A stretch of DNA of 64,000 bases from Candidatus Omnitrophota bacterium. GTDB lineage: Bacteria; Omnitrophota; Gorgyraeia; Gygaellales; Profunditerraquicolaceae. Shown here piece by piece: positions 12,250 to 57,661 of the stretch. The DNA is taken from positions 8,053-72,052 of the forward strand of contig JACQXK010000021.1 of NCBI GenBank assembly GCA_016208765.1, read 5' to 3'. Every line of letters starts with the position of its first letter. Position 1 is the first letter of the stretch. Made by a program: the position numbers and the translations under genes. The notes under the pieces were generated by a model. That model saw only the letters and a program-made list of their open reading frames with translations, was not told the origin of the DNA and searched no databases.

Positions 12250-12256
12250 ATACCCT

Positions 12257-13366: not shown

Positions 13367-13367
13367 T

Positions 13368-14330: not shown

Positions 14331-14341
14331 TTAAACAGATC

Positions 14342-15793: not shown

Positions 15794-15827
15794 TTTTATA
15801 CAAATATTTCATCTCGGTTTTTGTCTT

Positions 15828-16256
15828 TTACGTCAAGTTTTTCTTCACGACGTTAAGGTATTCTTCCCAGCTTCTGATGGATTTTGAAATATTGTAATGA
15901 GTGTCAGCCAATACCATACACACAGCATCAGCGGAAAAATCAAAGATATTAATGAAAATCATCTTTGGAATAAATAGCCCCCGCTTAGCGTCATTCATCT
16001 CAAAAACCCTTGACTCCCTTCCATCACAGAGCTCCATTTTAAACGAGCCGGAAGAAGCTATAACGACCTGGTCAGTTTCAGTATGCGCATGGCCGCCTCT
16101 GGGCGAAACGATATGGTGCATGTAGAAAACCCTCTTTATGGTAATGGGGATATCCCTCTCACTCTCTATGGCCGTCAGGAAGCCCCTGGAATCATTTATA
16201 GAAGGCAAATCAATCCATTTTATATATTTGAAATTCGATTGTATTTCTTGCATCAT
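15828..16256 (-). CDS. FdtA/QdtA/Tyl1a-like cupin, NDP-4-keto-6-deoxyhexose 3,4-ketoisomerase.
   Basis: 142 aa. The motifs are SRGFLTAIE...IKRVFYM...PRGGHAH, and the small-cupin size fits. Confidence 0.65.
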   Translation of the reverse strand: MMQEIQSNFKYIKWIDLPSINDSRGFLTAIESERDIPITIKRVFYMHHIVSPRGGHAHTETDQVVIASSGSFKMELCDGRESRVFEMNDAKRGLFIPKMIFINIFDFSADAVCMVLADTHYNISKSIRSWEEYLNVVKKNLT

Positions 16257-42578: not shown

Positions 42579-43200
42579 TTTCTCCAGGGAATGCCATACT
42601 CATTGTATTGATAAAATCTTCGGCGATCGCCATGGCATCCTTGACCTTCGCTTCTGTGGTTGGTACATCAATTCTGACCATAAGCCCTACCCTTTTTTTG
42701 TTAAATAAAGAAAAATACAGCTGTTTGAATTTTTGTTCTATCCACTCATGCGCAACATTTTTATCAATAACTATCCAGTAAAAGCTCAAAAAACTTTCTC
42801 CCTCTTTTTCGGTGAAGAGAGCGTGGGCCTTTATAGTCCTACCCATAACATTAAACTCTTTGTCCTCAAGCTCTTTAATAGTATAACCTGCACTTGTAAA
42901 GCATACCTTGGGGTGATGGAAGTTCCCGGCATCCAAAATAATAAACAAAAGTTTATTCCCATGCTTATTAATATATTGATAAGCCAGGACATCGCTGATA
43001 AAATCGAAATTGCCTTCACCAGGCTGAATGTTTAATTCCCTGCTTATATCTGCTCCTGCCCAATCAGCCAGCGAAATGGGGATCCTTAACTTTGGAATAA
43101 ATCCGGCGCCTTCGTATGTTATCTTTGGAAAAGCAAAGCTTAGCGTTACAGTCAATATAAGCAGTATAACAACAATCCATTCCCTCAATTTATAATTCAT
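42547..43200 (-). CDS. EpsI-like exosortase-associated protein (N-terminal TM plus periplasmic domain).
   Basis: 217 aa with a single N-terminal TM helix. It lies immediately downstream of, and 4-nt overlapping, the exosortase gene. This arrangement is typical of the separate-EpsI form of XrtA-type systems. Confidence 0.55.
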   Translation of the reverse strand: MNYKLREWIVVILLILTVTLSFAFPKITYEGAGFIPKLRIPISLADWAGADISRELNIQPGEGNFDFISDVLAYQYINKHGNKLLFIILDAGNFHHPKVCFTSAGYTIKELEDKEFNVMGRTIKAHALFTEKEGESFLSFYWIVIDKNVAHEWIEQKFKQLYFSLFNKKRVGLMVRIDVPTTEAKVKDAMAIAEDFINTMSMAFPGENVEYIFGGDR

Positions 43201-44063
43201 ACACCCTTGCTTTTCCCCTCCAGTAAAGACTCTAATCCTATTATCCCCAATATGGTAATTACAAACACCATAATTCCGCTAAAATTATGAAAAAAACCCT
43301 GACCGGTTTCTTCGCCAAAATAAAAAGTGACCAGGCAGAGAGTTATTACCCGGATAAGATTTCCAAGCAGTGCAAAAGGGATTATAAATAAAGTAAGTAT
43401 TATTTTTTTATTTAAACTGCTTTTATTAATATATACATAGACAAGAACCAATGAAAACATAGTAATTAACGAACGAAAACCGCTGCATGGCTGTCCCATA
43501 AAAATATCATTATACCCTATAGTCAGAAGAAGCCCTTCTCTGGTAATCGGATAGTCTAAGAACCTCAGAATTTTTTCAGCTAAGAATGAAATGCCGTGAC
43601 GCATTGGCAATGTTATACTGTCTAAGATGCCCATAGGCGGTGGCACAAGAAGTAAAAGATAAAGAATAGGAAAAGATAATACCTTGACCACGTTCCATCC
43701 GTAAATATAGCTTATCAAGCCAACCAGCATAGGCACAAGAGAAAGAGTAGCAATAAATAAATAATCCTGACGCCATCCAAAGATAAACATCGATATGCCT
43801 GCAAAAAGTGTTAAAAAAGCACTAAGGCTTTTTTCCGATGTTTTTTTACCGGCAAGTTCTCTTATCTTGATACGATTGCGCCATGCCAGCCACAGAGATA
43901 TTGGAAATATGAAATACGCATGTGTGTAATCAACTGTTTCCCAACGGTTATGATAAAGTTGCCAGAGTATCGGAGAATACAGTACCGCTACCAAAATCCA
44001 TATAAAAGGATGCAGTATTTTCAGGCCAGAATGAAATGGATTGAACGTAGTTAGCTTATTCAT
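43197..44063 (-). CDS. Exosortase (Xrt family; EpsH-like transpeptidase).
   Basis: 288 aa with 8 TM helices. The active-site-type motif GQPCSGFRSL is present; its Cys codon is at 43485..43487. A conserved Arg lies in the N-terminal region (DYTHAYFIFPISLWLAWRNR). Confidence 0.75.
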   Translation of the reverse strand: MNKLTTFNPFHSGLKILHPFIWILVAVLYSPILWQLYHNRWETVDYTHAYFIFPISLWLAWRNRIKIRELAGKKTSEKSLSAFLTLFAGISMFIFGWRQDYLFIATLSLVPMLVGLISYIYGWNVVKVLSFPILYLLLLVPPPMGILDSITLPMRHGISFLAEKILRFLDYPITREGLLLTIGYNDIFMGQPCSGFRSLITMFSLVLVYVYINKSSLNKKIILTLFIIPFALLGNLIRVITLCLVTFYFGEETGQGFFHNFSGIMVFVITILGIIGLESLLEGKSKGV

Positions 44064-44962
44064 AGTTTCTTTCTAATGATGAAAAGAGCGGTCCTTGTCA
44101 GCAAGTCTTCCCGCGTATATCCTTTATTTGTTAATTCATCCTCAATCTCTCTGGTTAAAAATCTCTCCCCCTCGGTAACAGTCTGCTCCTCAATAACATT
44201 TGTATGCGTCCTGAATATTTCCCGGTATTGATTTATTGTCATTTTATTCAGGTGTATGTTTACAGGATAGTTATTCTCTCGCAAATGGTCCCAAGGCGGC
44301 ACCTTTGCTGAAGGAGACTGTTCAGGATGAAGCCATTCAAGGCAGATTCCGCCTGAGAGGCTCGGGAACAAATGTATATTAATTGTCGCGATTCCTGCAG
44401 GTTTTAATACTCGATTCACTTCCCTGACGGCTTCCTCCACATTATCTATATGCTGAAAAACGACATTTGAATAGATAAAATCAAAACTATCTGATTGAAA
44501 TGCCGTACGGGTAGCGTCCATTATCCTGGTATCAAGTTTGTCAAATGTAACTTTCTGTCCGTATTCCCTTGATAAATCCCTGAAGTATTTTTTATCAAAC
44601 AGGAAATGTCTTATCAAAGATTTTACTGCTCGTTCAAAACCATTTGTCCTGATAATCTTTAAGAATATAGGAACTGTTATTCTATAAGTAGGCACATCAA
44701 TGTCTATCCCAATAATATTAGCGCCCTCTTTATGAAAAAGAGCAACTTGTTTCGGAATCTGCCCGCATCCAATCTCAAGGATGTCCGCTGTGTTAACAGG
44801 TATGCCTACATACTTAGTTAAGTAACCCATTAATCGCTTGTGGTGAAGAATGGTGCGGGTGGCATCTGCGAATCCTTTGTTTTTATATGCGTCATACAAA
44901 TATAAAGCCGATTTAAGCTTACTGCTTATCGAAACACCTTTTTCACTCATGACTGTTTTCAT
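44060..44962 (-). CDS. Class I SAM-dependent methyltransferase.
   Basis: ILEIGCGQIP and IDIDVP motifs. 300 aa. Confidence 0.75.
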   Translation of the reverse strand: MKTVMSEKGVSISSKLKSALYLYDAYKNKGFADATRTILHHKRLMGYLTKYVGIPVNTADILEIGCGQIPKQVALFHKEGANIIGIDIDVPTYRITVPIFLKIIRTNGFERAVKSLIRHFLFDKKYFRDLSREYGQKVTFDKLDTRIMDATRTAFQSDSFDFIYSNVVFQHIDNVEEAVREVNRVLKPAGIATINIHLFPSLSGGICLEWLHPEQSPSAKVPPWDHLRENNYPVNIHLNKMTINQYREIFRTHTNVIEEQTVTEGERFLTREIEDELTNKGYTREDLLTRTALFIIRKKL

Positions 44963-45009
44963 TATTGTTGATCCTTAAACCCGTTGTTATATTAGTATCA
45001 AATATGTCA

Positions 45010-45399
45010 TTAGAACATCACGTATATATAAGGCGGGATATCCTCTGCTCCCTGCTTCGTGCTGTGCAGTTTCCACCCCAAGCGGGCAAGTCCCTCAGCA
45101 TAAGATGCGATATCACTATCTCCCCTCTCCTGCCAAAACATTATTAATACAGATTGTAACTGCTCCGGCGTTTCATAATGCGGCAGCTCAAAATCTTGCC
45201 GCGTCAAACTGCTCTGCTTACACTGATTAAAATAAGATACTTCATCCGGTTCCGGTTTAAGAGGAAACCACTTGTTCCCCATATTGTTTATGCCGCAAAC
45301 AATTTTCTCACGAAAGAACCGGCCTGCTGCTTCTTCGTTTTCATCATCCGGACGATTTTTATCAGTCAAGTTCATATTGCTTCCTCCAATCATGATCAT
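45010..45399 (-). CDS. Hypothetical protein (129 aa).
   Basis: The ORF is open and co-directional between the methyltransferase and the carbamoyltransferase. I recognise no motif. The start is ambiguous (M1, M3 or M9). Confidence 0.4.
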   Translation of the reverse strand: MIMIGGSNMNLTDKNRPDDENEEAAGRFFREKIVCGINNMGNKWFPLKPEPDEVSYFNQCKQSSLTRQDFELPHYETPEQLQSVLIMFWQERGDSDIASYAEGLARLGWKLHSTKQGAEDIPPYIYVMF

Positions 45400-47206
45400 C
45401 TTTAAATCTGGGCTGATCCTCTTTCACAAGTATATAGCTTTCAAGCATTAACAAATCCATATCTGTCCTCATAAAACATCTATACGCATCCTGCGGAGAG
45501 CACACGATCGGCTCGCCGCGAACATTAAAAGACGTATTAACAACCAGGCCAATACCGGTCAGTTCTTTGAAAAAGCTGATCACGCGATAGAAGAAGGGAT
45601 TGTCATCCGTGCTTACGGTCTGTATGCGCGCACTGTAATCAACATGTGTGACAGCGGGAATATCGGAGCGCGGCATATTTACTACCTGAATCATATCTTC
45701 GCCAGCCTGCAAGATCTCATTTTCGTCCATCTGAATCTGATGTTCCTTCTTTACCGGAGCCACAAGAAGCATATACGGGCTCTCTGTATTTAGTTCAAAA
45801 TATTTGGATGTTTCTTCGACAATGCAGGACGGGGCGAAAGGCCGGAAGGATTCACGATATTTGATCTTGAGATTCATTACCGATTGGGTTTCCTTGCGTC
45901 GCGGATCACCAAGAATGGACCGTGCCCCCAAGGCCCTGGGTCCGTATTCCATGCGGCCGGAAAAGAAACCGACTATCTTCCCCTGAGCAAGAGCATCTGC
46001 AATAGCAGACGCTCTCTCATTAAAATCCTGAAGCTGTCTGAATGGATATCCGTGACGTTCAAGAAAAGCGCCAATCTCTGCGTCACTGTAAGCCGGACCC
46101 AGATAGCTGCCTTTTTGGCGGTCACGGTTATTTGTGCCCTTCGCCCTATGGTCATTAAAATAAACATGTGATCCCATAAGGGCCGCTCCAAGAGCTCCGC
46201 CAGCATCACCTGCGGCGGGCTGTATCCACATGTGTTCGAAAATATCTTCCGAGAGGATCTTTCCGTTGGCTACGCAATTCAGGGCGACACCTCCAGCCAG
46301 ACAGAGATTTTTCATTCCGATTTCCTTGCGGGCATAGCGGGCAATCCTGAGCATCACATCCTCGGTAACACGCTGTATTGACGCGGCAAGATTCATTTCA
46401 CGTTTTGTAATCCTGGATTCCGGCGTTCTTGGAGGTCCAAGCAAGGTATGCATCTTGTCGTTAGTCATAGCAAGACTGTCAAGGTATCCAAAATACTCAG
46501 TGTTTAGTCGGTAAGACCCGTCTTGTTTAATATCTATGAGATGCTCTCTGATAAGAGATTCAAAAACTGGCTCCCCGTATGGGGCAAGTCCCATTAATTT
46601 ATATTCCCCGGAGTTTACTTTAAATCCACAGAGATAAGTAAAAGCGCTATAAAGAAGGCCAAGGGAATGAGGATAATTGATCTCCTGCAGAAGTCCAATA
46701 TTGTTGTCGCGGCCGAAACCGATTGTAGTTGTTTGCCATTCTCCAACACCATCAACAGTAATTATGGCCGCTTCATCAAACGGCGACGGGAAAAAAGCCG
46801 ACGCCGCATGGGACATATGATGTTTTGAATACAACAGGCGGCCTCTCTTGCCTAACGACCCAATACACTTCCGCACCTCATCCTCGACCCAGAGCTTCGT
46901 GCCAAGGGTCGACCGCGCGGCCTTTTTAAACTGAACCTCACCATGTGGGCCTGCAGCTATGCAGTTTTTGATCACTCTGTCCAGTGTAAGGAGCGGATGA
47001 TCATAAAAAATGACAGCATCTATATCCTGAGGCTCAATAAGAGCTTCTTCCAGACAATAGTTGATTGCCGACTTCGGAAACCTCGGATCATGTTTCTTCC
47101 GCGAAAACCTCTCTTCCTGTGCGGCGGCAATAATCTCCCCCCCACGCACCAGAGCAGCGGCTGAATCGTGATAATAAGCGGATATTCCAAGAACTGTATG
47201 ACTCAC
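45362..47206 (-). CDS. NodU/CmcH/TobZ-family carbamoyltransferase.
   Basis: The N-terminus is VLGISAYYHDSAAALVRGGEIIAAAQEERFSRKKHDPRFP. The 614-aa two-domain architecture fits. Confidence 0.85.
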   Translation of the reverse strand: MSHTVLGISAYYHDSAAALVRGGEIIAAAQEERFSRKKHDPRFPKSAINYCLEEALIEPQDIDAVIFYDHPLLTLDRVIKNCIAAGPHGEVQFKKAARSTLGTKLWVEDEVRKCIGSLGKRGRLLYSKHHMSHAASAFFPSPFDEAAIITVDGVGEWQTTTIGFGRDNNIGLLQEINYPHSLGLLYSAFTYLCGFKVNSGEYKLMGLAPYGEPVFESLIREHLIDIKQDGSYRLNTEYFGYLDSLAMTNDKMHTLLGPPRTPESRITKREMNLAASIQRVTEDVMLRIARYARKEIGMKNLCLAGGVALNCVANGKILSEDIFEHMWIQPAAGDAGGALGAALMGSHVYFNDHRAKGTNNRDRQKGSYLGPAYSDAEIGAFLERHGYPFRQLQDFNERASAIADALAQGKIVGFFSGRMEYGPRALGARSILGDPRRKETQSVMNLKIKYRESFRPFAPSCIVEETSKYFELNTESPYMLLVAPVKKEHQIQMDENEILQAGEDMIQVVNMPRSDIPAVTHVDYSARIQTVSTDDNPFFYRVISFFKELTGIGLVVNTSFNVRGEPIVCSPQDAYRCFMRTDMDLLMLESYILVKEDQPRFKDDHDWRKQYELD

Positions 47207-48216
47207 GTCTTCAGCCCCCCAGTTTTTCCGTCTATCATAAGTTTTTCAATAGCCGGCCTCAATGAATCAGCAAGCGCCTCATGTCCCTGGGGTGTTGGAT
47301 GCACGTCGTTCTTAAATCGGAAGCCGCGCCTTTTTTCTGGTGAATAAGCCGTTAAATCAGGCAACGGATCGTGAAGAATGCATCCTGCTTCTTCTGCCAG
47401 TTCGCGGAAACGGGCCTGATAATGTCTGGGATCGCTCATACATTCAACGTAGTGATAAATCGGAATGGGCATCAGGACCACAGGTTTTGCACAACTTCGG
47501 ATCCATTCCAGCAGAATGGCCCTCATCACGCGCCATGACGAATTTTGCGGATCTTTGTATTCCGGCATCGGCTGATAACGACTCAGTCGCCGCGCCATAT
47601 TAAGAAATCCAAGCTGGTCGGCAACATTACGCAAGGTCAGAAACCTTCCGCCCCAATCTACCAGTCGTTCATCTTCCTTGGAAAGTTCAGATTCAGGAAT
47701 CGGCTCCCGCGGAACTGGGGTATTACGTAAAACCAGTTGTCCGTTATCAAATTCAAAGTACGGTTTCGCATACAACACGTCCCGCCCCTGATCGTCCTGA
47801 TAAAGACGATATCTGGAGCCAACCCTGCGAACATTTTCAACCCACACGGCGATAACCGCAGCGTTGTATTCAATATGCGCTGCGTATTCTTTAAAAATCA
47901 GATAATGCTGATCAGTCCCCGTCCCTGGGAGGGCGAAATTGAGAAACTCTAATTGTGGAATACGTTGTTCCAGTAGATCGCTGTAACGGAATTGATTGGA
48001 AACGCCGTCTCCGGCAGTGAAAGAGTCGCCGAACAAAATAACGCGGAATACGGACTCCCTCTTTTTTTCCGTAACATCATGCGTACAACGAAAGCCTTTG
48101 TTATTTGTTTGAATCAAATATCCTCCACCCTCATGCGGAACTCGAGCCTTGATTACCGGGATAAAGCGGTAACCAATAACCGGGTGATATTCAAATATCT
48201 GGCGCATTCCCAGCAT
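47203..48216 (-). CDS. SGNH/GDSL hydrolase-fold protein (no obvious TM anchor).
   Basis: Block I is ILFGDSFTAGDGV. Block V is DVHPTPQGHEALAD. Confidence 0.7.
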   Translation of the reverse strand: MLGMRQIFEYHPVIGYRFIPVIKARVPHEGGGYLIQTNNKGFRCTHDVTEKKRESVFRVILFGDSFTAGDGVSNQFRYSDLLEQRIPQLEFLNFALPGTGTDQHYLIFKEYAAHIEYNAAVIAVWVENVRRVGSRYRLYQDDQGRDVLYAKPYFEFDNGQLVLRNTPVPREPIPESELSKEDERLVDWGGRFLTLRNVADQLGFLNMARRLSRYQPMPEYKDPQNSSWRVMRAILLEWIRSCAKPVVLMPIPIYHYVECMSDPRHYQARFRELAEEAGCILHDPLPDLTAYSPEKRRGFRFKNDVHPTPQGHEALADSLRPAIEKLMIDGKTGGLKT

Positions 48217-48337
48217 ATTTAGCCCTTGGGCATCCTGCCGACATCTTGTGTGCCATCAATTGACACCGTAACCGAATGAAAAGACCAGCCACCGGGGTTC
48301 CTTCTTCCAGCCTTGATCCAAACAGATTTGAAATAAT

Positions 48338-49783
48338 TCATTTTGCTCCCCTTGCTAACAATACAACCGGAACGGTCTTTAATAAAATTTTAAAGTCAAG
48401 CCAGAGAGACCAATTATCAATATACTCCAAATCAAGCTTCATCCATTCAGTAAAATCAGCAATATCGCTCCTTCCGCTGATCTGCCATAAACACGTAATA
48501 CCGGGGCGCATGCTCAATTTCCTCCTCTGCCAATTATCATATTTCTCCACCTCTGATGGCAATGGGGGCCTTGGGCCGACAAGGCTCATATCCCCTTTGA
48601 ACACATTCCATAATTGCGGCAATTCATCGAGGCTGTATTTCCTTAGTAACTTCCCAATGGTTGTTATTCTTGGGTCATTAGTCATTTTAAAAACTGGCCC
48701 GTCCATTTCATTGAATTCCAAAATTTCTTTAAGTCTTGACTCCGCATCGATGACCATTGTCCTGAATTTATAAAAAGTAAATTGTCTGCCGTACACACTG
48801 CATCTTTTCTGCTTGAATAAAACCGGGCCTTCAGATGTCGACTTGATAAGAACAGCCACGAGCAGAAAAACCGGGGCAAACAATATAAGTGCAATTGAGG
48901 AGGCGGTGAAATCAAAAATCCTTTTGATGAATAAATGCTCTAACTTGTATGTCGCGCCTTCAAACGTGAGCAGCGGAAATCCATGAAGGTCTGTCTGCTT
49001 GGCCTTTAACATCTTTAACTCGAAGAAGTCAGTCGCAAGATGTATGGCCAGCCCCTCGCTTTCGCAAAAATGCATTATATCATCTATCTTGTTAAGCCAG
49101 GACCGCGGGACAATAAACACAATCTCATCAACAATGTTGTTATGGATTATGTCCGGAATATCATCAAAAACACCGAGCACCCTATACCCGTCAATTTCTT
49201 TTCCTTTTTTATTCTTATCGATATCTATGAGGCCGATAATCTTTATCCCCCACTGGGGGTTATTATCTATCAAATCAATAAATGTAGCTGCTCTTTTGCC
49301 GGTTCCAACAATTAAAATGCTCCGGAATGTGAATAATGCGCCTTTGAAACTTATGCCCATTTTACTGACATGCCTGAATATTGCAATGAAAACGATCTTC
49401 TCCGAAATTATTAAGACGGTAGAAAGAGTGAATATAATGCCTATCATTAGTCTCGTGACTTGCTCTTGCAAATGAAGTACAAACACATAGCTGCCAAATA
49501 AGACAAATCCTAAAAGAGCTGTTTTGATTGTTATGATCACGACTTCAGAGATTTGTCTCAGTCCGACTCTTTTGTACATGCCGAAGTAATACAAAAGAAG
49601 GCCCCATATAAACAGCAGGACAGGTAAAAGCCCTATATAAACATTGAGCGACAATACCTTGTAGAATCCGGTGCTTTCTATCCCGGCTCTTATAACATAG
49701 CCAATAAAAAACGAAATAGTTACTATACACAAATCGGCCGACAACAAGAATTTTCTCAATGTCCTGCTCTGCTCTTTTACCAT
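48338..49783 (-). CDS. Polyprenyl-phosphate hexose-1-phosphate transferase (WbaP/WcaJ-like bacterial sugar transferase), initiating enzyme.
   Basis: The N-terminus has 4-5 TM helices. The C-terminal region is FKFRTM...DPRIT.IGKLLRKYSLDELPQLWNVFKGDMSLVGPRP. Confidence 0.9.
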   Translation of the reverse strand: MVKEQSRTLRKFLLSADLCIVTISFFIGYVIRAGIESTGFYKVLSLNVYIGLLPVLLFIWGLLLYYFGMYKRVGLRQISEVVIITIKTALLGFVLFGSYVFVLHLQEQVTRLMIGIIFTLSTVLIISEKIVFIAIFRHVSKMGISFKGALFTFRSILIVGTGKRAATFIDLIDNNPQWGIKIIGLIDIDKNKKGKEIDGYRVLGVFDDIPDIIHNNIVDEIVFIVPRSWLNKIDDIMHFCESEGLAIHLATDFFELKMLKAKQTDLHGFPLLTFEGATYKLEHLFIKRIFDFTASSIALILFAPVFLLVAVLIKSTSEGPVLFKQKRCSVYGRQFTFYKFRTMVIDAESRLKEILEFNEMDGPVFKMTNDPRITTIGKLLRKYSLDELPQLWNVFKGDMSLVGPRPPLPSEVEKYDNWQRRKLSMRPGITCLWQISGRSDIADFTEWMKLDLEYIDNWSLWLDFKILLKTVPVVLLARGAK

Positions 49784-49831
49784 AATTTACTTACAATTTT
49801 AATAAAAACCGAGTTATGTTCTTATCATCGA

Positions 49832-50947
49832 TCAAACCGGATATAATTCTCCATATAGTTTGTATATTGATCGGGCGATTTCGTCCCAATTATAATGCTT
49901 CTTCAACATTTCCAATCGGTTTATTTTTTCCTTCTCCGGAGTATCAGTTTTCAGGTAGAACAGCATCTTCTTGCTTAGCTCTTCAATATCTCCCAGCTTA
50001 AAATAGCTATCTTCACTCAAATCAATCTGAAGGTTTGCTTCAATATTGCTTGCAAGCACCTCAATCTTGAAGCTTACTGCTTCCAGAAGTACGTGCGGCA
50101 GCCCTTCAAATTTTGAAGGCAACACAAAAAGCTTCGCATTTGCAAATAAAGTCTGTAACTCTTTACCTGTCAAAAAACCAGTTAAGATGATGTTGTTAAC
50201 TTTTTTTGCCATTGATTTTATCATCTTACTGTAACTGTCTTCATGGTCAGCATCACCTGTCAAAACGAGTTTCCATCTATCGTCCCTCATGCGCTCATAT
50301 GCGCGAATAAGATCTTCTATTGCCTTTTCTGGCGTAAAACGCCCTGCGAAAAAAATATAGCCCTTCCTTTTCAGCCCATAGTTATTAAGACACTGCTCCA
50401 TTTCCTTCTCCGAAACTTCCGAATGATTGAACTCAACCCCATTTGGTATCCGAACCACCTTGTCAGTATACTGTTTCAAATATTCAAGATGTGCATTTGA
50501 AACCGCTATTATCAGATCGGCTTTAATAGCGGCTTTCTCGGAGAGTCTCCAGACGCTTTTTGCAAGCTTGCCCCATTTAGGGTATAAATAATCACGAGAT
50601 TGAAAAGTCAAAATGACCTTTATGCCAAACAGCCTGACCAGCGGTATATACAAGCCGCAGCTTAATCCATGAAAATGCGCAATATCGGGTCTCTTCAGAA
50701 TCGTGATGAGAGAGGCTATAAATCCATAGAATATTTTTTCGAGGTTTTTGGACTTCAGGGATTTAATATATATATATTTGATGTTTTCCCAGTTTTTTAT
50801 TTTTTCCTTATAATATGCAGTGATGACCAAGGCGGTGATTTCAATATTATTACGTTTAGACAGTCTACGGTATAATTCTTCACAATATTTTTCTATCCCC
50901 CCCTGAACGTTCGGAAAGCCGCGAGCCCCAATCACAAAAACTCTCAT
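49832..50947 (-). CDS. GT4 family (GT-B fold) glycosyltransferase.
   Basis: The C-terminal region FAGRFTPEKAIEDL...LPSKFEGLPHVLLEAVSFKIEVLASN is typical of GT4 enzymes. Confidence 0.85.
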   Translation of the reverse strand: MRVFVIGARGFPNVQGGIEKYCEELYRRLSKRNNIEITALVITAYYKEKIKNWENIKYIYIKSLKSKNLEKIFYGFIASLITILKRPDIAHFHGLSCGLYIPLVRLFGIKVILTFQSRDYLYPKWGKLAKSVWRLSEKAAIKADLIIAVSNAHLEYLKQYTDKVVRIPNGVEFNHSEVSEKEMEQCLNNYGLKRKGYIFFAGRFTPEKAIEDLIRAYERMRDDRWKLVLTGDADHEDSYSKMIKSMAKKVNNIILTGFLTGKELQTLFANAKLFVLPSKFEGLPHVLLEAVSFKIEVLASNIEANLQIDLSEDSYFKLGDIEELSKKMLFYLKTDTPEKEKINRLEMLKKHYNWDEIARSIYKLYGELYPV

Positions 50948-50992
50948 CTGGATTTATCGCCCGTCATCATTGAAATCTATCCACAGGTGAAA

Positions 50993-51838
50993 TTAATTAA
51001 TATGTAAAACATCCCTCAAGATCCGGATCCATTTATTTTCAAATATCCCGGAAACACGCACTTTAAATACAAACATTGGGAAGTTCCTGACCCCCACTCT
51101 TTCCAGAGCAAAAATATCGCTATCACTGGTAATGCATCCATTATTTGTTGAAAAGGCAGCAGAATATCCTGTCTCCTTTACTATATTCACTGATGTATCA
51201 TTGAAATCAAGTCCCCTTTTACCATATGGATAAGCAAAATATTTAACTTTCTTTTGAAGAATATTTTCTATTTTCAGCTTTGAACTCTCAATTTCAAATT
51301 TTGTGTTTTCATAATCAATTTCTGATAATGCCTTATGAGATACTGTATGAGCTCCGAAAGCAACTTTGTTCTCGCGCATTATTCTAATTTCCTCTTCTGT
51401 TAGTCCATAATCTTTTCCAACAAAATCTGTAGCTATAAATATCGTAACTGGGAAACCATACACTTTTATTATCTGAAATGCGCTAGTATAGTTGTCTTTC
51501 CAGCCATCATCAAAAGTAATCGCAATAACATCATTTCTTAAACAAGCTCTGTTTCTCAATATATCAATAAGATCATCCAGCGACACAACATCAAAGTTTT
51601 TCCTTAAGTAAGCCATTTGGTTTTTAAAGGTTTCTAATTTGACTGATATAGGCGCATCCTCATTGCCGTCATGAATACGATGGTATGTCAGTACAAGGAT
51701 GATATAGCGTTTTAAAAGATGTTTGCGCAGATAACTATAGAGCGGAACCGTGCCGGAACAATACAATAATAATGAAAGCAGCGCACCAATATTCCACGCT
51801 ATCTTATATCTTATTTCTGTGTACTTTCTGCTTCTCAA
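50993..51838 (-). CDS. CE4 polysaccharide deacetylase (NodB homology domain).
   Basis: AITFDDGWKDNY and an HTVSH-like region are present. There is an N-terminal TM anchor. Confidence 0.8.
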   Translation of the reverse strand: MRSRKYTEIRYKIAWNIGALLSLLLYCSGTVPLYSYLRKHLLKRYIILVLTYHRIHDGNEDAPISVKLETFKNQMAYLRKNFDVVSLDDLIDILRNRACLRNDVIAITFDDGWKDNYTSAFQIIKVYGFPVTIFIATDFVGKDYGLTEEEIRIMRENKVAFGAHTVSHKALSEIDYENTKFEIESSKLKIENILQKKVKYFAYPYGKRGLDFNDTSVNIVKETGYSAAFSTNNGCITSDSDIFALERVGVRNFPMFVFKVRVSGIFENKWIRILRDVLHIN

Positions 51839-51891
51839 GTCTCTTGGTTATTCAAATCATCAAACCTAAATTTCAGATCGATCGAAGCTGG

Positions 51892-52854
51892 CTAATACCC
51901 TTTGTAATGTGCTATGACATCTTTAATAATGTCGTCAAGCGAGTATTTGGGACTGAACCCGATCAGCCTTTTTATTTTTGTAAGGTCAGGAGCCCGTCTC
52001 ATCATATCTTCAAAGCCTTCTTCGTAAGCTTCATCATACGAGATATACTGTATCTCAGATTTACTGCCCGTAACTTTTTTGATTTTTCTTGCAAGATCTT
52101 CAATAGATACTTCCTCGTCATTTCCGAGATTAATAACTTCCCCTACAACGTCTTTTATCTGATTAATCTTAACGAGTGCTTCAACCGCATCTTTAACATG
52201 AGTGAAACACCTTGATTGTTTTCCGTCGCCGAAAATCGTTATCGGCTTGTTCTGCAGCGCCTGTTTGACAAAACGTGGAATAACCATACCATACCTGCCC
52301 GTCTGCTTCGGCCCTACAATATTAAAAAACCTTACCACCACCACCGGAAGCTCTTTCTCCTTCCAGTAAGCTAATCCCAAAAATTCATCCAACGCCTTTG
52401 AACACGCATAGCTCCATCTGCCTTTTGTAGTAGAGCCCAAAACAAGATCGCCGTCTTCACTAAATAATTTCTGTGAGCTTTTGCCATAAACTTCAGATGT
52501 TGACGCTATAATAACTTTTTTATTTTTCTTGTTCGCATGTTTAAGAACCTCCTCCGTGCCTTTTACATTAGTCTCGATAGTACGGACGGGGCTTTCGACA
52601 ATAAGCATAACGCCTACAGCAGCTGCAAGATGAAACACGGTATCACATTTATCGATAAGCTCTGCAAGAACAGGTGAGTTCATTATGGTATCGATTACAT
52701 AATGAAAACCTTTGCGTTTTTTTAAATGTTCTATATTCTCAATACTGCCGGTTGAGAGGTCATCAATGACATAGACTTGATGTCCCTCTTCAAGCAGTTT
52801 CTCTGCAAGATGAGAGCCTATAAATCCGGCCCCGCCTGTAATGAGTATTTTCAC
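51892..52854 (-). CDS. NAD-dependent epimerase/dehydratase (extended SDR; UXS/ArnA-C-terminus-like or 4-epimerase).
   Basis: KILITGGAGFIGSHL, STSEVYGK and YACSKALDE (YxxxK) are present. Confidence 0.85.
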   Translation of the reverse strand: MKILITGGAGFIGSHLAEKLLEEGHQVYVIDDLSTGSIENIEHLKKRKGFHYVIDTIMNSPVLAELIDKCDTVFHLAAAVGVMLIVESPVRTIETNVKGTEEVLKHANKKNKKVIIASTSEVYGKSSQKLFSEDGDLVLGSTTKGRWSYACSKALDEFLGLAYWKEKELPVVVVRFFNIVGPKQTGRYGMVIPRFVKQALQNKPITIFGDGKQSRCFTHVKDAVEALVKINQIKDVVGEVINLGNDEEVSIEDLARKIKKVTGSKSEIQYISYDEAYEEGFEDMMRRAPDLTKIKRLIGFSPKYSLDDIIKDVIAHYKGY

Positions 52855-54173
52855 GTTGTTCCCCTTTCCAATTTTGAGCTTTCAGATATTTGTTTATATA
52901 TTACCATTAATCTCTGATAATGCCTTTCCTGATTCAGTTCTTCCTCATAAAATTCTCTGGCTTTTTTACCCATTTCGCCGGCCATGCCAGGATGATCCAT
53001 AAAATATTCAATTACTGAGCTCAATTCATTTGCATCTCCTGGTTGAAAGAGCAAGCCTCTTTCATGATCTCTAACAAGTTCCGGAATGCCACCAATTCTT
53101 GAACCGATCACGGGCCTGCCCAATGCGAATGCCTCTATCACTGACATGGGATTATTTTCATACCACTCCGATGGAAGTACAACTGCAAGGCTATTTCTAA
53201 TCTCCCGGTATACATCCTTACGCTTTAAGTATCCTGCAAAGTTAACATTATTGATCTGTTCCGCTTTGACTTTTTCCTGAAGCTTTTCCATCAAGGGGCC
53301 GTCCCCTATAATATTGATCCGCACCTTACTGCCCCTGTCCAAGAGGGATTTTGCAGCATCGAGAAGAGTAATCAGTCCTTTTTCCTGAGATAGTCTTCCA
53401 ATATAGGAGATTGCGTTTTTCATATTATCGCTGCAACTTTCTCCAGCAATATCATCCTGCTCATTAATATCCAAAAAATTATATAGCTGCACTATATTTT
53501 TGTTAAAGCCAGCTCCTTCAAGTTTTTCTTTAAGAAAAAGACTTGGTGTAATAAAGACATCCACGCTGTCGTATATACCAAGGATTCCATGATGAAGATA
53601 CATTTCCAGGAATGCAATAGCGCTTTTGGCAAGTGAATCTTTCACGCATCTTTTTTTAATTGCCATATAATAACTTCCTTGACGACAGGCCTCGCAAATC
53701 TTCCCTTCAGCAAACATGTAATATGAAGTGCAAACCATCTTAAAATCATGAAGCGTCATAACAACAGGTATTGCTCTTTTCTTTAATTCATGGAGAATCG
53801 AAGGGGAAATATGATAACAAATATCATGAAGATGGGCTATATCTACGGGATATCTGTCTAATAATTTGGATAGGTTTCTCCTTGCCTTTAACGAATAAAG
53901 GATTCTCCATGCGATTCTGAACTGGTTTAATATGCTGTGCTGATCAGTTAATTCCACATAAGGCACAAAATACTCTTCTGTACTACAGGAGAGGTTTTCG
54001 GGATGATGCATTGAGAAAAACAAAACATTATGACCGTGTTTTCTTAAAAGTTCTGCAGACTTTAAATACACTGTTTCCGGCCCAGCCCTGTAATAATGAT
54101 ATTTGTTAATCAGAAGAACGTTCATTTTTATGTTATCGTTATCTAAATAATCTATGCATTGGTTCCATTTCAA
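52851..54173 (-). CDS. GT4 family glycosyltransferase.
   Basis: The C-terminal region is VLPSEWYENNPMSVIEAFALGRPVIGSRIGGIPELV. The probable true start is the internal Met (MNVLLINKYHYY). Confidence 0.85.
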   Translation of the reverse strand: MKWNQCIDYLDNDNIKMNVLLINKYHYYRAGPETVYLKSAELLRKHGHNVLFFSMHHPENLSCSTEEYFVPYVELTDQHSILNQFRIAWRILYSLKARRNLSKLLDRYPVDIAHLHDICYHISPSILHELKKRAIPVVMTLHDFKMVCTSYYMFAEGKICEACRQGSYYMAIKKRCVKDSLAKSAIAFLEMYLHHGILGIYDSVDVFITPSLFLKEKLEGAGFNKNIVQLYNFLDINEQDDIAGESCSDNMKNAISYIGRLSQEKGLITLLDAAKSLLDRGSKVRINIIGDGPLMEKLQEKVKAEQINNVNFAGYLKRKDVYREIRNSLAVVLPSEWYENNPMSVIEAFALGRPVIGSRIGGIPELVRDHERGLLFQPGDANELSSVIEYFMDHPGMAGEMGKKAREFYEEELNQERHYQRLMVIYKQISESSKLERGTT

Positions 54174-54211
54174 TTAATGAAAAACCAGGTTGAAGAGATT
54201 GACTGACATGA

Positions 54212-55489
54212 TTACAACCGAAGATCAGGGGTATTAGCTGCAATGGTTGCGACTTTTTTCAATGCATTTGCGCATTGCCGAATATACTTTTCAGATACTT
54301 TTGTGAATGCCGGAAGACTCAATAATCTGTCAGCGACCTTCTCTGCAACCGGGAACGTACCAGCACTGTAGTTTTTTTGTCGAGTGCTGTTTACTCGCCC
54401 AACGCATCCGCCAAACCGGGAATAGTCCAGGTCCGCAAACAATGCGGCTTGAGGTAAAATCCTTCCAGGCGTTCCGCCAATTGAACTATAACGGTCAACA
54501 GCCACAGGCACACCTTCCGCCTGCGCAGCTTTAGCAAACGCCGCATGATTCCATCCTCCTGCGTGTTCAGGATAATAACACAGTATAAATTCCAGAAAGC
54601 CGCCACGTTCGGCTTCAGGATACGATTCGATTAAATGCACAGCCTTGCATCCTTTTAGTTCATCATTGAGTATTTGGTAATTGCGCTTCCTTCTCTCGTT
54701 AAGCTCTTGCAAACGGTCTAATGAGCCGAGCGCAAGCAAAACACCGAAAAGATGAGGACGATACTTCAATCCAAGGCAAAGCCCGTCTGTTTGAAAAGAT
54801 TTCTCTTTCTGATCAGTATCGATCCTGCCATAGTGGCCCAGAATAAGCATCCGGTCATATAATTTCGGATCATTAGTCACGGCAATTCCAAGCTCTCCGC
54901 CACTGACTGGCTTATCGCCCTGCATGCTGAAACAACCGATATCCCCCCAACTGCCAACCGGTTTCCCTTTATAGACGGCCCCGTGAGCATGCGACGCATC
55001 CTCAATCAGCGCTACCTTATGCTTTCTTGCAATCTCGACAAATCTGTCCATTTTTGCCGGATTGCCCCATACGTGTACAACACAAATTGCCCGTGTCCGT
55101 TCCGTGATCCTCCGCTCCACATCATCCGGGTCAGCAGTCAAAGTACGTTCGTCAATATCGCAAAATACAGGAGTACCGCCCAATTGCAAAACCGGCGCAG
55201 CCGAAGCAAAAAACGTGTAAGCAGGCACAATCACTTCATCCCCGGGCTGAACTCCGACAGCAAAGAAAGCACTGTGGAGCGTCGCGGTCCCACTATTCAT
55301 TACCAGAGCATATTCAGTACCGGTAAGACGGCAAAAGCCTTCTTCAAGCCTGGAAACCGGGCCGCCTGACTCTGCCTGCGTGGTTTTCCCCAAAGCAGCA
55401 TATATCGCAATTTTTAGAATATCTTTAACTCCAACCTTGCGCCAACGATCAAGGGACATTCCCCTTACAAGCCGCTGTCCGCCAAACAT
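54212..55489 (-). CDS. DegT/DnrJ/EryC1/StrS family aminotransferase. The start is assigned to the internal Met.
   Basis: MNSGTATLHSAFFAVGVQPGDEVIVPAYTF and DASHAHGAVYKGKPVGSWGDIGCFS are present. The longest ORF (to 55738) overlaps the upstream gene by 200 bp. I prefer Met84, whose codon is at 55487..55489. Confidence 0.8.
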   Translation of the reverse strand: MFGGQRLVRGMSLDRWRKVGVKDILKIAIYAALGKTTQAESGGPVSRLEEGFCRLTGTEYALVMNSGTATLHSAFFAVGVQPGDEVIVPAYTFFASAAPVLQLGGTPVFCDIDERTLTADPDDVERRITERTRAICVVHVWGNPAKMDRFVEIARKHKVALIEDASHAHGAVYKGKPVGSWGDIGCFSMQGDKPVSGGELGIAVTNDPKLYDRMLILGHYGRIDTDQKEKSFQTDGLCLGLKYRPHLFGVLLALGSLDRLQELNERRKRNYQILNDELKGCKAVHLIESYPEAERGGFLEFILCYYPEHAGGWNHAAFAKAAQAEGVPVAVDRYSSIGGTPGRILPQAALFADLDYSRFGGCVGRVNSTRQKNYSAGTFPVAEKVADRLLSLPAFTKVSEKYIRQCANALKKVATIAANTPDLRL

Positions 55490-55538
55490 AGCTAATTGTC
55501 TGGCACTGTAAGCAGCTCCGTTTTTCTGCTCCGTTGAT

Positions 55539-56732
55539 TTAGTATGATTTACGTTTTTGGTATTCACTGGCAGTAATCCCTTTATAAAATGGAGTAGATT
55601 TCTGAAGAGGCAACGATACGCTCTCTCCCATAATTGCTGATGTGTATATAGCTGTGCATAATTCCAGCGACCTGCGCGCATCTTCCGCAGAAACAGGCAC
55701 TTCACCGTCTTCATCCAACGCATCCAGGAAAGCCTCAATTAAAGTTTTGTGCAGTGGGGGTTCTCCAACTATTTGAAAATTGATTCCTAATTTCGGCAAA
55801 ATCTTTCTCAGCACTTTTGCTGGAATGCCGTCAGCGCCGAACTGACTTCTTATTTTTCCGGTCAAAGAGGACACCAATCCCTGATTCTGGAATCCAGAAA
55901 TCAGCTTCGCCTCAACCATTGCTCTTGTCATTGCGCGCAAATGCCTGCTGTCCTTGGAGCAGAGCGTCCATGGAAAGTGCGCAGAAGCCATGTCTCCAAT
56001 CACATCAAACTGGGTCTTAAGCCTGTGAGCATTAATCGTGGCAGAACAATTTACAAGAGCTCCGTTTTCAAATTCAACTGTAGCAACAAAAGAGTCCTCT
56101 GATTCGATGTTCTGTTGAAATGTGTCCATCCTTGCATAAACTGATACCGGTTTGCCAAAGATGTTAAGCATGATATCCAACTGATGGATAAACTGTGTCA
56201 TTACCACGCCGCCTCCGGCAATGTCCCATTTACCCCACCAGTCACTTACGGCGCTCATCGGCGTCACGCGCAGGAAATTGCCGCTCTGCAGTTTACCCAT
56301 CATGCCCCTGTCACGCAGCCATATAACCCGTTGAACCGCCGGCATATACCGGACCTGATAACATACCGCAAGTTTATTCGGGCGCTTCGCCGCGTACTCG
56401 ATTATCCGGTCTGCCGACTCCAGTGTGTGCGCAAGCGGTTTCTCACAGATGACGTGCTTGCCGGCATTAAGCGACTCAAAGACTAATTCTTCATGTGTTG
56501 AAGGAGGAGTAGCGACCACTATAATGTCAATGTCAGACCTCTTAAGCAACTCCTTATAATCAGTATATGTAAATGGCACGAAAAAACGGTTGCTCGCACG
56601 CTTCAGTCTGGCACTGTCAATATCCGACAGACCAATAAACCTGGCACGGCTTTTCAAAGCTTGAAGTGACAGCGCGTGATCGCTCAGTATCTCTCCGGCG
56701 CCGATGATACCAAATCCATATACTTTTTTCAT
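55539..56732 (-). CDS. Gfo/Idh/MocA family NAD-dependent oxidoreductase (WbpB/GnnA-like sugar 3-dehydrogenase candidate).
   Basis: FGIIGAGEI and EKPLA are present. 397 aa. Confidence 0.8.
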   Translation of the reverse strand: MKKVYGFGIIGAGEILSDHALSLQALKSRARFIGLSDIDSARLKRASNRFFVPFTYTDYKELLKRSDIDIIVVATPPSTHEELVFESLNAGKHVICEKPLAHTLESADRIIEYAAKRPNKLAVCYQVRYMPAVQRVIWLRDRGMMGKLQSGNFLRVTPMSAVSDWWGKWDIAGGGVVMTQFIHQLDIMLNIFGKPVSVYARMDTFQQNIESEDSFVATVEFENGALVNCSATINAHRLKTQFDVIGDMASAHFPWTLCSKDSRHLRAMTRAMVEAKLISGFQNQGLVSSLTGKIRSQFGADGIPAKVLRKILPKLGINFQIVGEPPLHKTLIEAFLDALDEDGEVPVSAEDARRSLELCTAIYTSAIMGESVSLPLQKSTPFYKGITASEYQKRKSY

Positions 56733-56776
56733 TGTCTTCCTTTCAATAAGATTTCCACCAAACTTACTTTATGTGA

Positions 56777-57661
56777 TTATGCACAGTTACAGCGTCCAAA
56801 AATTCGCTGCTTCAAGGCTCCTGCATTGGCGCGAGCCTTAACAGGCAATCCTGCAAACCAGCGCTTTAGTCTTAATGATAGACCTGCCTCGTCAGGCTGT
56901 TCTGTGTCTATCTTCCTCCATACGCCTTTGTCGGTCCTCCATTCAGGAAACCAGCGGTCCATATCCGCTCCGCAAATCAGCTCAAAAGATTTTCTCATTT
57001 CCTCATCCCATCCCTCCCAGTACCTTACCGGCTGATAGGCGATATTCAGTTTCTCGACCAACACCTTGCGTTCACCCCGCAGATCGAGGAACTTCGCAAT
57101 CTGCGGCATTGTTGTCTTTAACCTGTCGAGCCGCACCTTCATCCATCGCCCGCTGTCAAGGCTATGTATATGCGTCTCTATAACAAGGTTATATTTCTTC
57201 CAAAGCCAGCAGCATTTTTCAAAACGATTCATCTGTTCCCATTCCTGAAGGGGAAAATCTCCGGTCCGGTCGCCTTGAAGACGGCCTTTTTTCCATTCCT
57301 CCGGGACCTTTGGATCATCGGGATCGAACCAGCCGCGATAATACATTGATGCCACCACATCACGTCCGTCACGTATAAGCCATATGTATTTAGCAGACGG
57401 AAATACCTTCTCAATAACAGGGACAAGCAAACTCAATTGAAGATTTACTTCGCCGTATATTTTATTGATTGATTTCTTAACCCGGGTTGAACGAAGCACT
57501 TCGGCGACTTGTTCTTCAGGGTATTCGCCATAATAGTACTGTGTCGCTTCAATAACAAGTTCAGGTTCAGGATGATGGAAACATGTACAATTACTGAAGC
57601 TGTTAAGAGCAGTGGCAATTGTCCTGCTGCCGCTCCGTCCGGAACTTAGTACAAAAAACAT
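56777..57661 (-). CDS. Stf0-like sulfotransferase (P-loop sulfotransferase domain).
   Basis: The N-terminus is FFVLSSGRSGSRTIATAL (5'-PSB-like). The RDGRDVVASMYYRGW region is 3'-PB-like. Confidence 0.55.
   Translation of the reverse strand: MFFVLSSGRSGSRTIATALNSFSNCTCFHHPEPELVIEATQYYYGEYPEEQVAEVLRSTRVKKSINKIYGEVNLQLSLLVPVIEKVFPSAKYIWLIRDGRDVVASMYYRGWFDPDDPKVPEEWKKGRLQGDRTGDFPLQEWEQMNRFEKCCWLWKKYNLVIETHIHSLDSGRWMKVRLDRLKTTMPQIAKFLDLRGERKVLVEKLNIAYQPVRYWEGWDEEMRKSFELICGADMDRWFPEWRTDKGVWRKIDTEQPDEAGLSLRLKRWFAGLPVKARANAGALKQRIFGRCNCA

Follow-up and report, generated by a model that had tools for sequence, protein, structure and literature searches.

We analysed a stretch of 64,000 nt (hereafter, the window) from contig JACQXK010000021.1 (positions 8,053 to 72,052; assembly GCA_016208765.1), which belongs to the metagenome-assembled genome (MAG) of an uncultured Omnitrophota bacterium. 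The window is a surface-glycan island of ∼55 kb on the minus strand. The list of open reading frames (ORFs) and domain scans showed that the genes between ∼9.8 and 63.9 kb follow one another on the minus strand without interruption and are all glycan-related, and parts of a Wzx-dependent pathway are combined in this island with an exosortase/EpsI pair (Table 1). A first-pass annotation had singled out four of these ORFs as a CE4 de-N-acetylase, a carbamoyltransferase, a sulfotransferase and a methyltransferase, lying among two GT4 glycosyltransferases and a WbaP-type initiator, and had likened the set to the enzymes that decorate Nod factors. The positions, strand and enzyme classes of all four were confirmed, as were the GT4 genes and the initiating transferase, which has five hydrophobic segments and scores 423.7 bits on TIGR03025 (cut-off 295.55). 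Two GT2 genes also lie near the four decorating genes. The most useful content of the locus is a pair of conserved three-gene decoration cassettes, both uncharacterised. Cassette A encodes the sulfotransferase, a dehydrogenase of the MocA type and a DegT-family aminotransferase; cassette B encodes an SGNH hydrolase-fold protein, the carbamoyltransferase and a protein of 121 aa.

Table 1. Features of the window, listed in the direction of transcription
Feature	Position	Strand	Evidence
Wzx-type flippase	59414..60937	-	Polysacc_synt 95.4 bits, Polysacc_synt_3, MatE
520-aa polytopic membrane protein, candidate polymerase or GT-C-like enzyme	57788..59350	-	at least 8 hydrophobic segments
Cassette A gene 1, predicted soluble PAPS-type sulfotransferase	56777..57661	-	weak partial Sulfotransfer_3, motifs, fold
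Cassette A gene 2, Gfo/Idh/MocA NAD-dependent sugar dehydrogenase	55539..56732	-	GFO_IDH_MocA 106 bits + C-terminal domains
Cassette A gene 3, DegT-family PLP aminotransferase	54212..55489	-	DegT_DnrJ_EryC1 266 bits
GT4 glycosyltransferase	52851..54173	-	Glycos_transf_1 124.8 bits
SDR nucleotide-sugar epimerase, dehydratase or decarboxylase	51892..52854	-	Epimerase 184.7 bits
CE4 de-N-acetylase	50993..51838	-	Polysacc_deac_1 95.7 bits
GT4 glycosyltransferase	49832..50947	-	Glycos_transf_1 83 bits, Glyco_transf_4 69 bits
Initiating polyprenyl-phosphate glycosylphosphotransferase (WbaP/WcaJ type)	48338..49783	-	Bac_transf 237 bits + CoA_binding_3
Cassette B gene 1, cytoplasmic SGNH/GDSL hydrolase-fold protein	47203..48216	-	Lipase_GDSL_2 40.2 bits; no transmembrane segment
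Cassette B gene 2, ATP/carbamoyl-phosphate O-carbamoyltransferase (TobZ/NovN type)	45362..47206	-	Carbam_trans_N 318.8 + Carbam_trans_C 237.7 bits
Cassette B gene 3, 121-aa soluble protein, C-terminus PxIYVMF conserved	45010..45375	-	synteny, alignment
Class I SAM methyltransferase	44060..44962	-	Methyltransf_11 58.2 bits; SAM motif LEIGCG
Exosortase, closest to XrtV/XrtB	43197..44063	-	Exosortase_EpsH 198 bits; TIGR02602 155.8 bits (cut-off 105.55)
EpsI-family exosortase partner	42547..43200	-	DUF3485 59.9 bits; TIGR02914 52.4 bits (cut-off 42.8)
GT-C paralogues	17415-18962, 24064-25560, 28808-30445, 33685-35586, 37125-38777, possibly others	-	PMT_2
PAPS, 3′-phosphoadenosine-5′-phosphosulfate; PLP, pyridoxal phosphate; SDR, short-chain dehydrogenase/reductase; SAM, S-adenosylmethionine.

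The sulfotransferase had been described as Stf0-like, a label that proved wrong. Pfam gave a weak and partial match to Sulfotransfer_3 (32.1 bits, residues 60–108 only), and Stf0 was neither the sequence family matched nor the closest fold. A homologue search returned 73 relatives. In a family alignment of 31 sequences, residues G8, R9 and G11 of the 5′-phosphosulfate loop (SGRSGS) are ≥90% conserved, and R97, G99 and S105 of the 3′-phosphate motif RDGRDvvaS (R97/G99/D101/S105) are invariant; the PAPS-binding residues, on which the first-pass annotation had staked its assignment, are thus kept. An AlphaFold model built on the 31-sequence alignment had a predicted local distance difference test (pLDDT) score of 93.2. 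When this model was submitted to Foldseek, the top 50 PDB matches were all PAPS sulfotransferases, with tyrosylprotein sulfotransferase (TPST) and heparan-sulfate enzymes the closest folds and polyketide sulfotransferases close behind. A second fold search likewise had none but PAPS sulfotransferases at its top. Judged by its motifs and modelled fold, the protein is a genuine PAPS-type sulfotransferase, not an Stf0-like one. A literature search found no paper on Omnitrophota sulfotransferases or on PDB entry 8GYH.

Given TPST as a closest fold, the enzyme might be a protein tyrosine sulfotransferase, as RaxST is, and modify secreted or exosortase-sorted proteins instead of sugars. We regard this as very unlikely. 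TPST shares only 14–18% sequence identity with the window protein, the heparan-sulfate and polyketide enzymes follow closely in fold, and the window contains no PEP-CTERM or other candidate peptide substrate. In addition, the domain fusions of the family and the conserved adjacency to a dehydrogenase and an aminotransferase (see below) point to carbohydrate acceptors. A profile search against 1.84 billion representatives yielded 459 representative family members at E ≤ 1e-30, many of which are fusions. In dozens, an LbH (hexapeptide) acetyltransferase domain forms the N-terminal part and the sulfotransferase comes after it (P0209, P0232 and P0244, for example); others join the sulfotransferase to a GT2, sometimes together with TPR, and some contain two or three sulfotransferase repeats. 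The GT2 and LbH fusions tie this family to sugar substrates. On the 1.9-kb contig that encodes the P0209 fusion (L118), the fragment preceding it resembles the C-terminus of Wzt, as judged by eye only. An LbH-sulfotransferase fusion placed after a Wzt-like fragment may point to chain termination in O-antigen pathways of the ABC-transporter type.

We read the neighbourhoods of sulfotransferase homologues from public contigs and 27 genome loci, comparing their ORFs with the window proteins. The gene order sulfotransferase-MocA-DegT was found in eight distinct loci, namely the window, L003 (Omnitrophica), L004 (WS5), a single Deltaproteobacteria locus represented by L005, L006 and L009, and L007, L008, L010 and L034. 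Carriers therefore include Omnitrophota, WS5, Deltaproteobacteria and unclassified MAGs. Sulfotransferase orthologues in these loci are 52–66% identical, and DegT orthologues, after MocA in all eight, are 55–73% identical. Beside sulfotransferase homologues of ≤39% identity, the MocA and DegT partners were not found. In L003 and L004, the conserved order extends to Wzx, 520-aa protein, sulfotransferase, MocA, DegT, a variable insert, GT4 and epimerase, with identities of 59–86%. The 520-aa protein is conserved directly upstream of the sulfotransferase in both (63% and 59%, respectively), the first GT4 of Table 1 has orthologues of 65–70% identity downstream of cassette A, and the SDR protein is 77–86% identical; its LegB-like and UDP-xylose-synthase-like NCBIfam matches fall below cut-off. 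Wzx orthologues, 58–64% identical, occupy the same relative position in L001, L003 and L004. In L034, a UDP-sugar 6-dehydrogenase gene lies just downstream of cassette A, and fragments of Sulfate_transp genes (positions 1–1380) lie ∼9 kb upstream of it.

The two partner enzymes suggest what is sulfated. GxGxxG and EKP motifs are readable in the MocA translation, and the best PDB matches (3q2i and 3q2k, at 7.5e-26) are to what we take to be WlbA, a UDP-GlcNAcA 3-dehydrogenase. The best NCBIfam models were UDP-GlcNAc 3-dehydrogenase NF040723 (121.6 bits, cut-off 450) and inositol 2-dehydrogenase (IolG; 117.7 bits, also below cut-off). In the ORF list, DegT shares 200 nt with MocA; we reset its start to M84 (55489), which gives a protein of 425 aa, as in the orthologues. 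This protein contains the PLP lysine context 'FSMQGDKPVSGGE' and matches WbpE in the PDB at 5.7e-31, with other subfamilies scoring higher; strong PDB matches include scyllo-inositol and 2-deoxy-scyllo-inosose aminotransferases. In the pathway we propose, MocA would oxidise a sugar hydroxyl to a keto group and DegT would transaminate it, probably at C-3 of UDP-HexNAc or UDP-HexNAcA by comparison with the WlbA/WbpB-WbpE pair. PAPS-dependent sulfate would be added in the cytoplasm, and the adjacent conserved GT4 would install the resulting sulfated amino sugar. Cassette A most likely supplies a sulfated amino sugar.

Those same inositol-enzyme matches, of MocA to IolG and of DegT to inositol and inosose aminotransferases, would also suit a cassette A that makes a small soluble metabolite, such as a sulfated aminocyclitol or amino sugar, its presence in the island being incidental or regulatory. 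The Deltaproteobacteria locus fits this idea too: the triad stands alone there (L005, L006, L009), and in L005 it lies among unrelated genes, without glycan genes nearby. We nevertheless consider it unlikely, since in the window, L003, L004 and L034 the triad keeps a fixed order between Wzx and the conserved GT4 or other glycan genes, and members of the family are fused to GT2. The glycosyltransferases that serve the standalone triad may be encoded elsewhere.

A bolder version of the sulfated-sugar proposal is that cassette A is a bacterial route to N-sulfated (sulfamino) sugars, in which the sulfotransferase caps the amine made by MocA and DegT with sulfate. It would then hold the place normally taken by N-acetyltransferases of the WbpD type, and the sulfamate would enter with the monomer, ahead of polymerisation, unlike the polymer-level N-deacetylase/N-sulfotransferase (NDST) route of animals. 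We offer this as a speculative idea with a small chance of being right. A formyltransferase-like gene lies near the cassette in L003, and FemAB-like genes lie near the sulfotransferase in L001 and L004; together with the LbH fusions and the two orthologues that lack the amine-forming pair (L001 and L035), these neighbours favour ordinary O-sulfation. If true, N-sulfation by cassette A would provide a gene marker for N-sulfated glycosaminoglycan-like polymers of the kind detected by dye assay in Pontiella (see below). Sulfated glycosaminoglycan-like compounds have been reported in granular sludge and anammox granules (reports cited by PMC7356697).

Turning to cassette B, the carbamoyltransferase is covered over its full length by the two Pfam profiles that had been predicted for it, Carbam_trans_N (Kae1-like, 2–346/346) and Carbam_trans_C (YrdC-like, 1–170/170). 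It aligns with NovN over residues 10–596 at 1.5e-88, followed by GdmN and TobZ. The domain scan reported no HypF domains on this protein, and the near full-length alignment with NovN, GdmN and TobZ places it in the O-carbamoyltransferase branch and not in the HypF maturation branch, the one placement that had been held to undo the assignment. A carbamoyl-AMP mechanism is established for the TobZ-type family. By analogy, cassette B would O-carbamoylate a sugar hydroxyl with carbamoyl phosphate and ATP via carbamoyl-AMP. The protein has >8000 homologues at E < 1e-50, 63–70% identical across phyla. Between the window and the planctomycete Phycisphaerae RAS1 (L036, Planctomycetota), in which SGNH also lies upstream of the carbamoyltransferase, the two proteins are 58% (SGNH) and 66% (carbamoyltransferase) identical. 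A literature search found no paper on this SGNH-carbamoyltransferase pairing.

The third gene of cassette B was listed as an ORF of 129 aa. A start at M9 (45375) gives 121 aa, the length annotated in the source MAG itself, and a 14-nt overlap with the carbamoyltransferase gene. The protein aligns, PxIYVMF terminus included, with 119-aa proteins that follow the carbamoyltransferase in L036 and in L037 (Spirochaetota), where the same 14-nt overlap occurs. It has no match in Pfam, NCBIfam or PDB sequences, and a structure model made from only two sequences (pLDDT 52.6) was unusable. We considered SxtJ as an identity for this ORF and rejected it; the protein belongs to a different, soluble family.

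Gene order around the carbamoyltransferase separates two subtypes. A metagenome scan provided 80 further loci, for 82 carbamoyltransferase loci compared in all. In type 1 (≥60% identity), every locus with DNA on the upstream side has SGNH there, and 10 loci have the small protein on the downstream side. In type 2 (54–58% identity), genes like SxtJ and DUF5989 (SxtK) occur instead; L003 (8656–11090) is of this type. SxtJ-like and DUF5989 (SxtK-like) genes follow the carbamoyltransferase in ∼50 of the 80 metagenome loci (within L051–L116), forming a trio like the sxtI-J-K genes of saxitoxin clusters. The SxtJ and SxtK proteins of those clusters remain uncharacterised (PMC2885083). The gene order is GDSL, methyltransferase, carbamoyltransferase, 119-aa protein and CE4 in L036, and GDSL, carbamoyltransferase and 119-aa protein in L037, with no glycan genes nearby. 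In L038 and L043, type-1 cassettes adjoin genes for Wzx, Wzy, Gmd, a nucleotidyltransferase and DegT, neighbours that mark them as glycan-decoration cassettes.

Both cassettes stand out in base composition. Guanine plus cytosine (GC) content is 0.470, 0.469 and 0.490 for the sulfotransferase, MocA and DegT genes of cassette A, and 0.481, 0.475 and 0.448 for the SGNH, carbamoyltransferase and 121-aa protein genes of cassette B. All other genes between 37 and 64 kb have GC contents of 0.32–0.41, the CE4 gene being the lowest of the block (0.345), and the window as a whole averages 0.391. The two largest intergenic gaps of the region (126 and 121 nt) each precede one cassette in the direction of transcription. 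These data fit two self-contained, possibly acquired modules. The sulfotransferase, MocA, DegT, SGNH, carbamoyltransferase and methyltransferase proteins have zero predicted transmembrane segments, which fits cytoplasmic chemistry.

The other two decorating enzymes behave differently from the cassettes. CE4 and the methyltransferase are singletons, that is, locus-specific additions. Genes of both kinds recur beside type-1 carbamoyltransferases in L036, L045, L047 and L060, and these are not orthologous to the window genes; in the other loci compared, the methyltransferases beside the carbamoyltransferase or the sulfotransferase are likewise not homologous to that of the window. The CE4 motifs TFDD, HTVSH and AYPYG are readable in the translation, and the best PDB matches are a Streptococcus pyogenes deacetylase (6dq3, presumably PplD), PgaB and IcaB. 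The N-terminal hydrophobic helix of the protein has a Kyte-Doolittle mean of ∼1.55 (calculated by hand), just below the threshold of 1.6 used in the transmembrane scan. We envisage that CE4, with this helix, would remove N-acetyl groups and that the SAM methyltransferase would add methyl groups.

The first-pass annotation had treated the four enzymes as one toolkit. This grouping does not hold, as the sulfotransferase travels with MocA and DegT and the carbamoyltransferase with SGNH and the small protein. We also rejected a conserved four-enzyme toolkit, since 0 of the 82 carbamoyltransferase loci contained a sulfotransferase homologue. The two enzymes were found near each other only in the window, in L003 (with the different carbamoyltransferase subtype) and in L026 (30% identity). 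Because the four-way clustering is not conserved elsewhere, it is no more of a unit than the gene content of a large glycan island would lead one to expect.

All four superfamilies that tailor Nod factors are present within 13.6 kb, and one could therefore picture the product as a Nod-factor-like lipochitooligosaccharide, with a chitin-oligomer backbone de-N-acetylated, N-acylated, carbamoylated, sulfated and methylated by analogues of NodB/U/H/S. We give this almost no credence. As the first-pass annotation itself had pointed out, there is no NodC-like processive GT2: the GT2 proteins are 230–320 aa long, and the PgaC_IcaA model reached 57.9 bits (cut-off 422.3) over the N-terminal part only. 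The Pfam domains of NodA, NodC and NodS matched none of the window ORFs scanned. The NodB model (TIGR04243) gave 34.1 bits on CE4 (cut-off 240), lower than the PgaB and IcaB models, and the NodU equivalog model (NF041651) gave 134.1 bits on the carbamoyltransferase (cut-off 1000). In addition, the initiating transferase and Wzx imply a lipid-linked repeat-unit polymer, and the sulfotransferase and carbamoyltransferase cassettes occur in many non-symbiotic phyla. The Nod parallel, which had been put forward as an analogy, holds for the four superfamilies; nothing Nod-specific was found beyond them, and the locus has no bearing on Nod signalling.

Taken together, these observations mark the interval as the probable core of a Wzx-dependent heteropolysaccharide locus, for exopolysaccharide (EPS) or an O-antigen-like polymer, which is linked to an exosortase and decorated by independently evolved modules. 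In this scheme, the WbaP-type transferase would prime polyprenyl phosphate, GT4 and GT2 enzymes would build the repeat unit on the cytoplasmic face of the membrane, and Wzx would flip it. The 520-aa membrane protein is a candidate for the polymerase of this unit. It had no match in the Pfam scan and only a weak one to NCBIfam LA_3751/LA_3752, and its L003 orthologue has a weak PMT_2 match. Such a locus would probably make an amino-sugar polysaccharide that is both sulfated and O-carbamoylated. The broader prediction of a glycan that is carbamoylated, sulfated, de-N-acetylated and methylated is a reasonable one. From the domain content, gene order and parallels with known pathways we infer the substrates, the order of the steps, the positions modified and the action of all modules on the same glycan.

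It is also possible, though to our minds doubtful, that the four decorations fall on different glycans of the island (lipopolysaccharide (LPS) core, O-antigen and EPS, for example) and that there is no single, fully decorated polymer. The island holds several pathways, with at least six GT-C genes and their GT2 partners, a GT9, two LtaS/EptA-like transferases and a dTDP-deoxysugar block, and the cassettes are compositionally foreign and independently mobile. Set against this, the genes from Wzx to the exosortase are co-directional, with gaps that are short or overlapping, and L003, also from Omnitrophota, likewise joins a sulfotransferase cassette, a carbamoyltransferase and a CE4 in one operon-like block of 13 kb.

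Several observations weigh against the decorated Wzx-dependent polymer that we favour. With several glycan pathways in the window, the four decorations may not fall on one polymer. Wzy_C, Wzz and Poly_export had no match in the 64-kb window, nor did it contain polysaccharide co-polymerase/outer-membrane polysaccharide export (PCP/OPX) genes or a recognisable Wzy; such functions may be encoded outside. Domain scans of the ORFs revealed no PAPS-synthesis gene in the window. A motif scan of all window ORFs of ≥60 aa for PEP-CTERM substrates of the exosortase gave one match, spurious and antisense; substrates may be elsewhere. As for cassette A, no equivalog cut-off is even approached by MocA or DegT, both of which match cyclitol enzymes, and hence the substrate could be a cyclitol or a free sugar. 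Finally, two close orthologues of the sulfotransferase, in L001 (67%) and L035 (50%), have no MocA and DegT within 10 kb, which means that the link between the three genes is not obligate. L035 is an ABC-transporter O-antigen-type locus.

Other genes of the island were characterised in less detail. For the exosortase, the subtype models XrtV (207.8 bits) and XrtB (203 bits) both fell below their own cut-offs. The stop codon of the methyltransferase gene overlaps the exosortase start by 4 nt, and the exosortase and EpsI genes are translationally coupled to it through such 4-nt overlaps. Just outside the interval, at 38764–39555 (minus strand), lies a YdjC-family protein (115 bits) that could be a second de-N-acetylase; the YdjC family includes the chitooligosaccharide deacetylase ChbG. 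Membrane-anchored SGNH proteins are encoded nearby, at 39561–40637 and 41463–42578 (minus strand). Between 17415 and 38777 on the same strand, at least six GT-C (PMT_2/ArnT-like) paralogues are interleaved with small GT2s, and one GT9 is present too. These GT2s resemble polyprenyl-phosphate sugar synthases, and the GT-C/GT2 set points to extensive periplasmic glycosylation.

Two paralogous 650-aa proteins in this region (25602–27578 and 30468–32429, minus strand) have ∼5 N-terminal transmembrane helices and Sulfatase and SGSH_C domains. We considered them as glycan sulfatases paired with the sulfotransferase and rejected this, as the nucleophile motif 'NWTTPSTMSILTG' has Thr. With Thr in place of the Cys/Ser of the formylglycine motif (Cys/Ser-x-P-x-R), behind ∼5 transmembrane helices, they would be phosphoglycerol or phosphoethanolamine transferases of the LtaS/EptA type. 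A dTDP-deoxysugar block (10792–16256, minus strand) encodes an NDP-hexose 2,3-dehydratase (510 bits), an FdtA-like 3,4-ketoisomerase, a DegT aminotransferase (382 bits), a MocA-type reductase and two SAM methyltransferases. Blocks of this type are seen in antibiotic pathways, and here the gene content suggests a 2,6-dideoxy or 3-amino-2,3,6-trideoxy surface sugar, possibly N-methylated. The only plus-strand gene pair in the window comprises a STELLO-like glycosyltransferase domain (7239–8243, 45.6 bits) and a GT2 (6515–7255). STELLO proteins are known chiefly from the plant Golgi.

To our knowledge, substrates have been identified for very few of the sulfotransferases acting on bacterial glycans. 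A portable, cross-phylum sulfotransferase cassette is a small unit with which sulfated amino-sugar polymers could be found and engineered, and cassette A could help predict which uncultured lineages have strongly anionic surfaces. The SGNH-carbamoyltransferase-small-protein cassette and its SxtJ/SxtK sister group together cover thousands of uncharacterised carbamoyltransferases. Omnitrophota include ultra-small, possibly host-dependent cells, and a heavily decorated envelope glycan may matter for their attachment.

How, then, does the locus compare with known systems? Cassette A recalls the WlbA/WbpB-WbpE route to 2,3-diamino uronic acids, in which a MocA-type dehydrogenase is likewise followed by DegT. 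The usual third partner in that route is an LbH N-acetyltransferase (WbpD/WlbB). Here the cassette enzymes score well below the equivalog cut-offs, and the sulfotransferase stands in the place of the third partner. CE4 has the metal/catalytic motif set of the polymer-level enzymes PgaB, IcaB and 6dq3 intact and finds its best sequence matches among them, whereas all equivalog models are far below cut-off. The rhizobial NodB, NodU, NodH and NodS enzymes belong to the same four superfamilies as the window proteins; the window lacks NodC and NodA and has Wzx-dependent backbone machinery instead. The carbamoyltransferase shares the two-domain, Kae1-like plus YrdC-like architecture of TobZ, NovN, GdmN, CmcH and NodU over its full length. 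Its subgroup is set apart by SGNH upstream and the 121-aa gene downstream, while the sister subgroup has SxtJ/SxtK-like genes, as beside SxtI (PMC2885083). O-carbamoyl heptose, made by WapO (PA5005), is conserved in Pseudomonas LPS cores, and WapO, of the same family as the window enzyme, sets a precedent for envelope glycans being O-carbamoylated by such enzymes (PMC8005017).

Sulfated polysaccharides of bacteria were for a long time believed to occur only in cyanobacteria. The phylum of the Kiritimatiellae, like Omnitrophota, is usually placed in or near the Planctomycetes-Verrucomicrobia-Chlamydiae (PVC) group. Sulfotransferases in a Wzx/Wzy EPS cluster have been established for synechan (xss) of Synechocystis PCC 6803 (PMC8205485) and inferred for wps-1 of Actinoplanes (PMC13390465). 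Like the Wzx-dependent locus of the window, these Wzx/Wzy-type clusters have cytoplasmic PAPS-type sulfotransferases (PF13469/PF00685 class) among glycosyltransferases. In the portions of these reports available to us, their sulfotransferases sit with glycosyltransferases, a methyltransferase and export genes, and no dehydrogenase-aminotransferase partner or carbamoyltransferase is listed in the same cluster. The window locus, unlike them, is exosortase-linked, and XssA/E and WpsB/H are likened to the window enzyme by class and context. The statement in the first-pass annotation that O-carbamoylated, sulfated envelope glycans are rare therefore needs softening, given carbamoyl groups in the Pseudomonas LPS core (PMC8005017) and sulfotransferases in EPS clusters (PMC8205485, PMC13390465, PMC7356697). 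A similar arrangement is that of Pontiella sulfatireligans F21 (Kiritimatiellae), whose EPS is 75–80% N-sulfated by a dye-binding assay (PMC7356697). In its putative sulfated glycosaminoglycan cluster, genes for a flippase (tuaB), a methyltransferase, a PF13469 sulfotransferase and a DegT transaminase follow one another (PMC7356697), an arrangement that resembles L034, L004 and the window; the Pontiella sulfotransferase, SCARR_03099, is likened to ours by this arrangement. Its best characterised match is also TPST, and no MocA gene appears in the legend to the Pontiella figure (PMC7356697).

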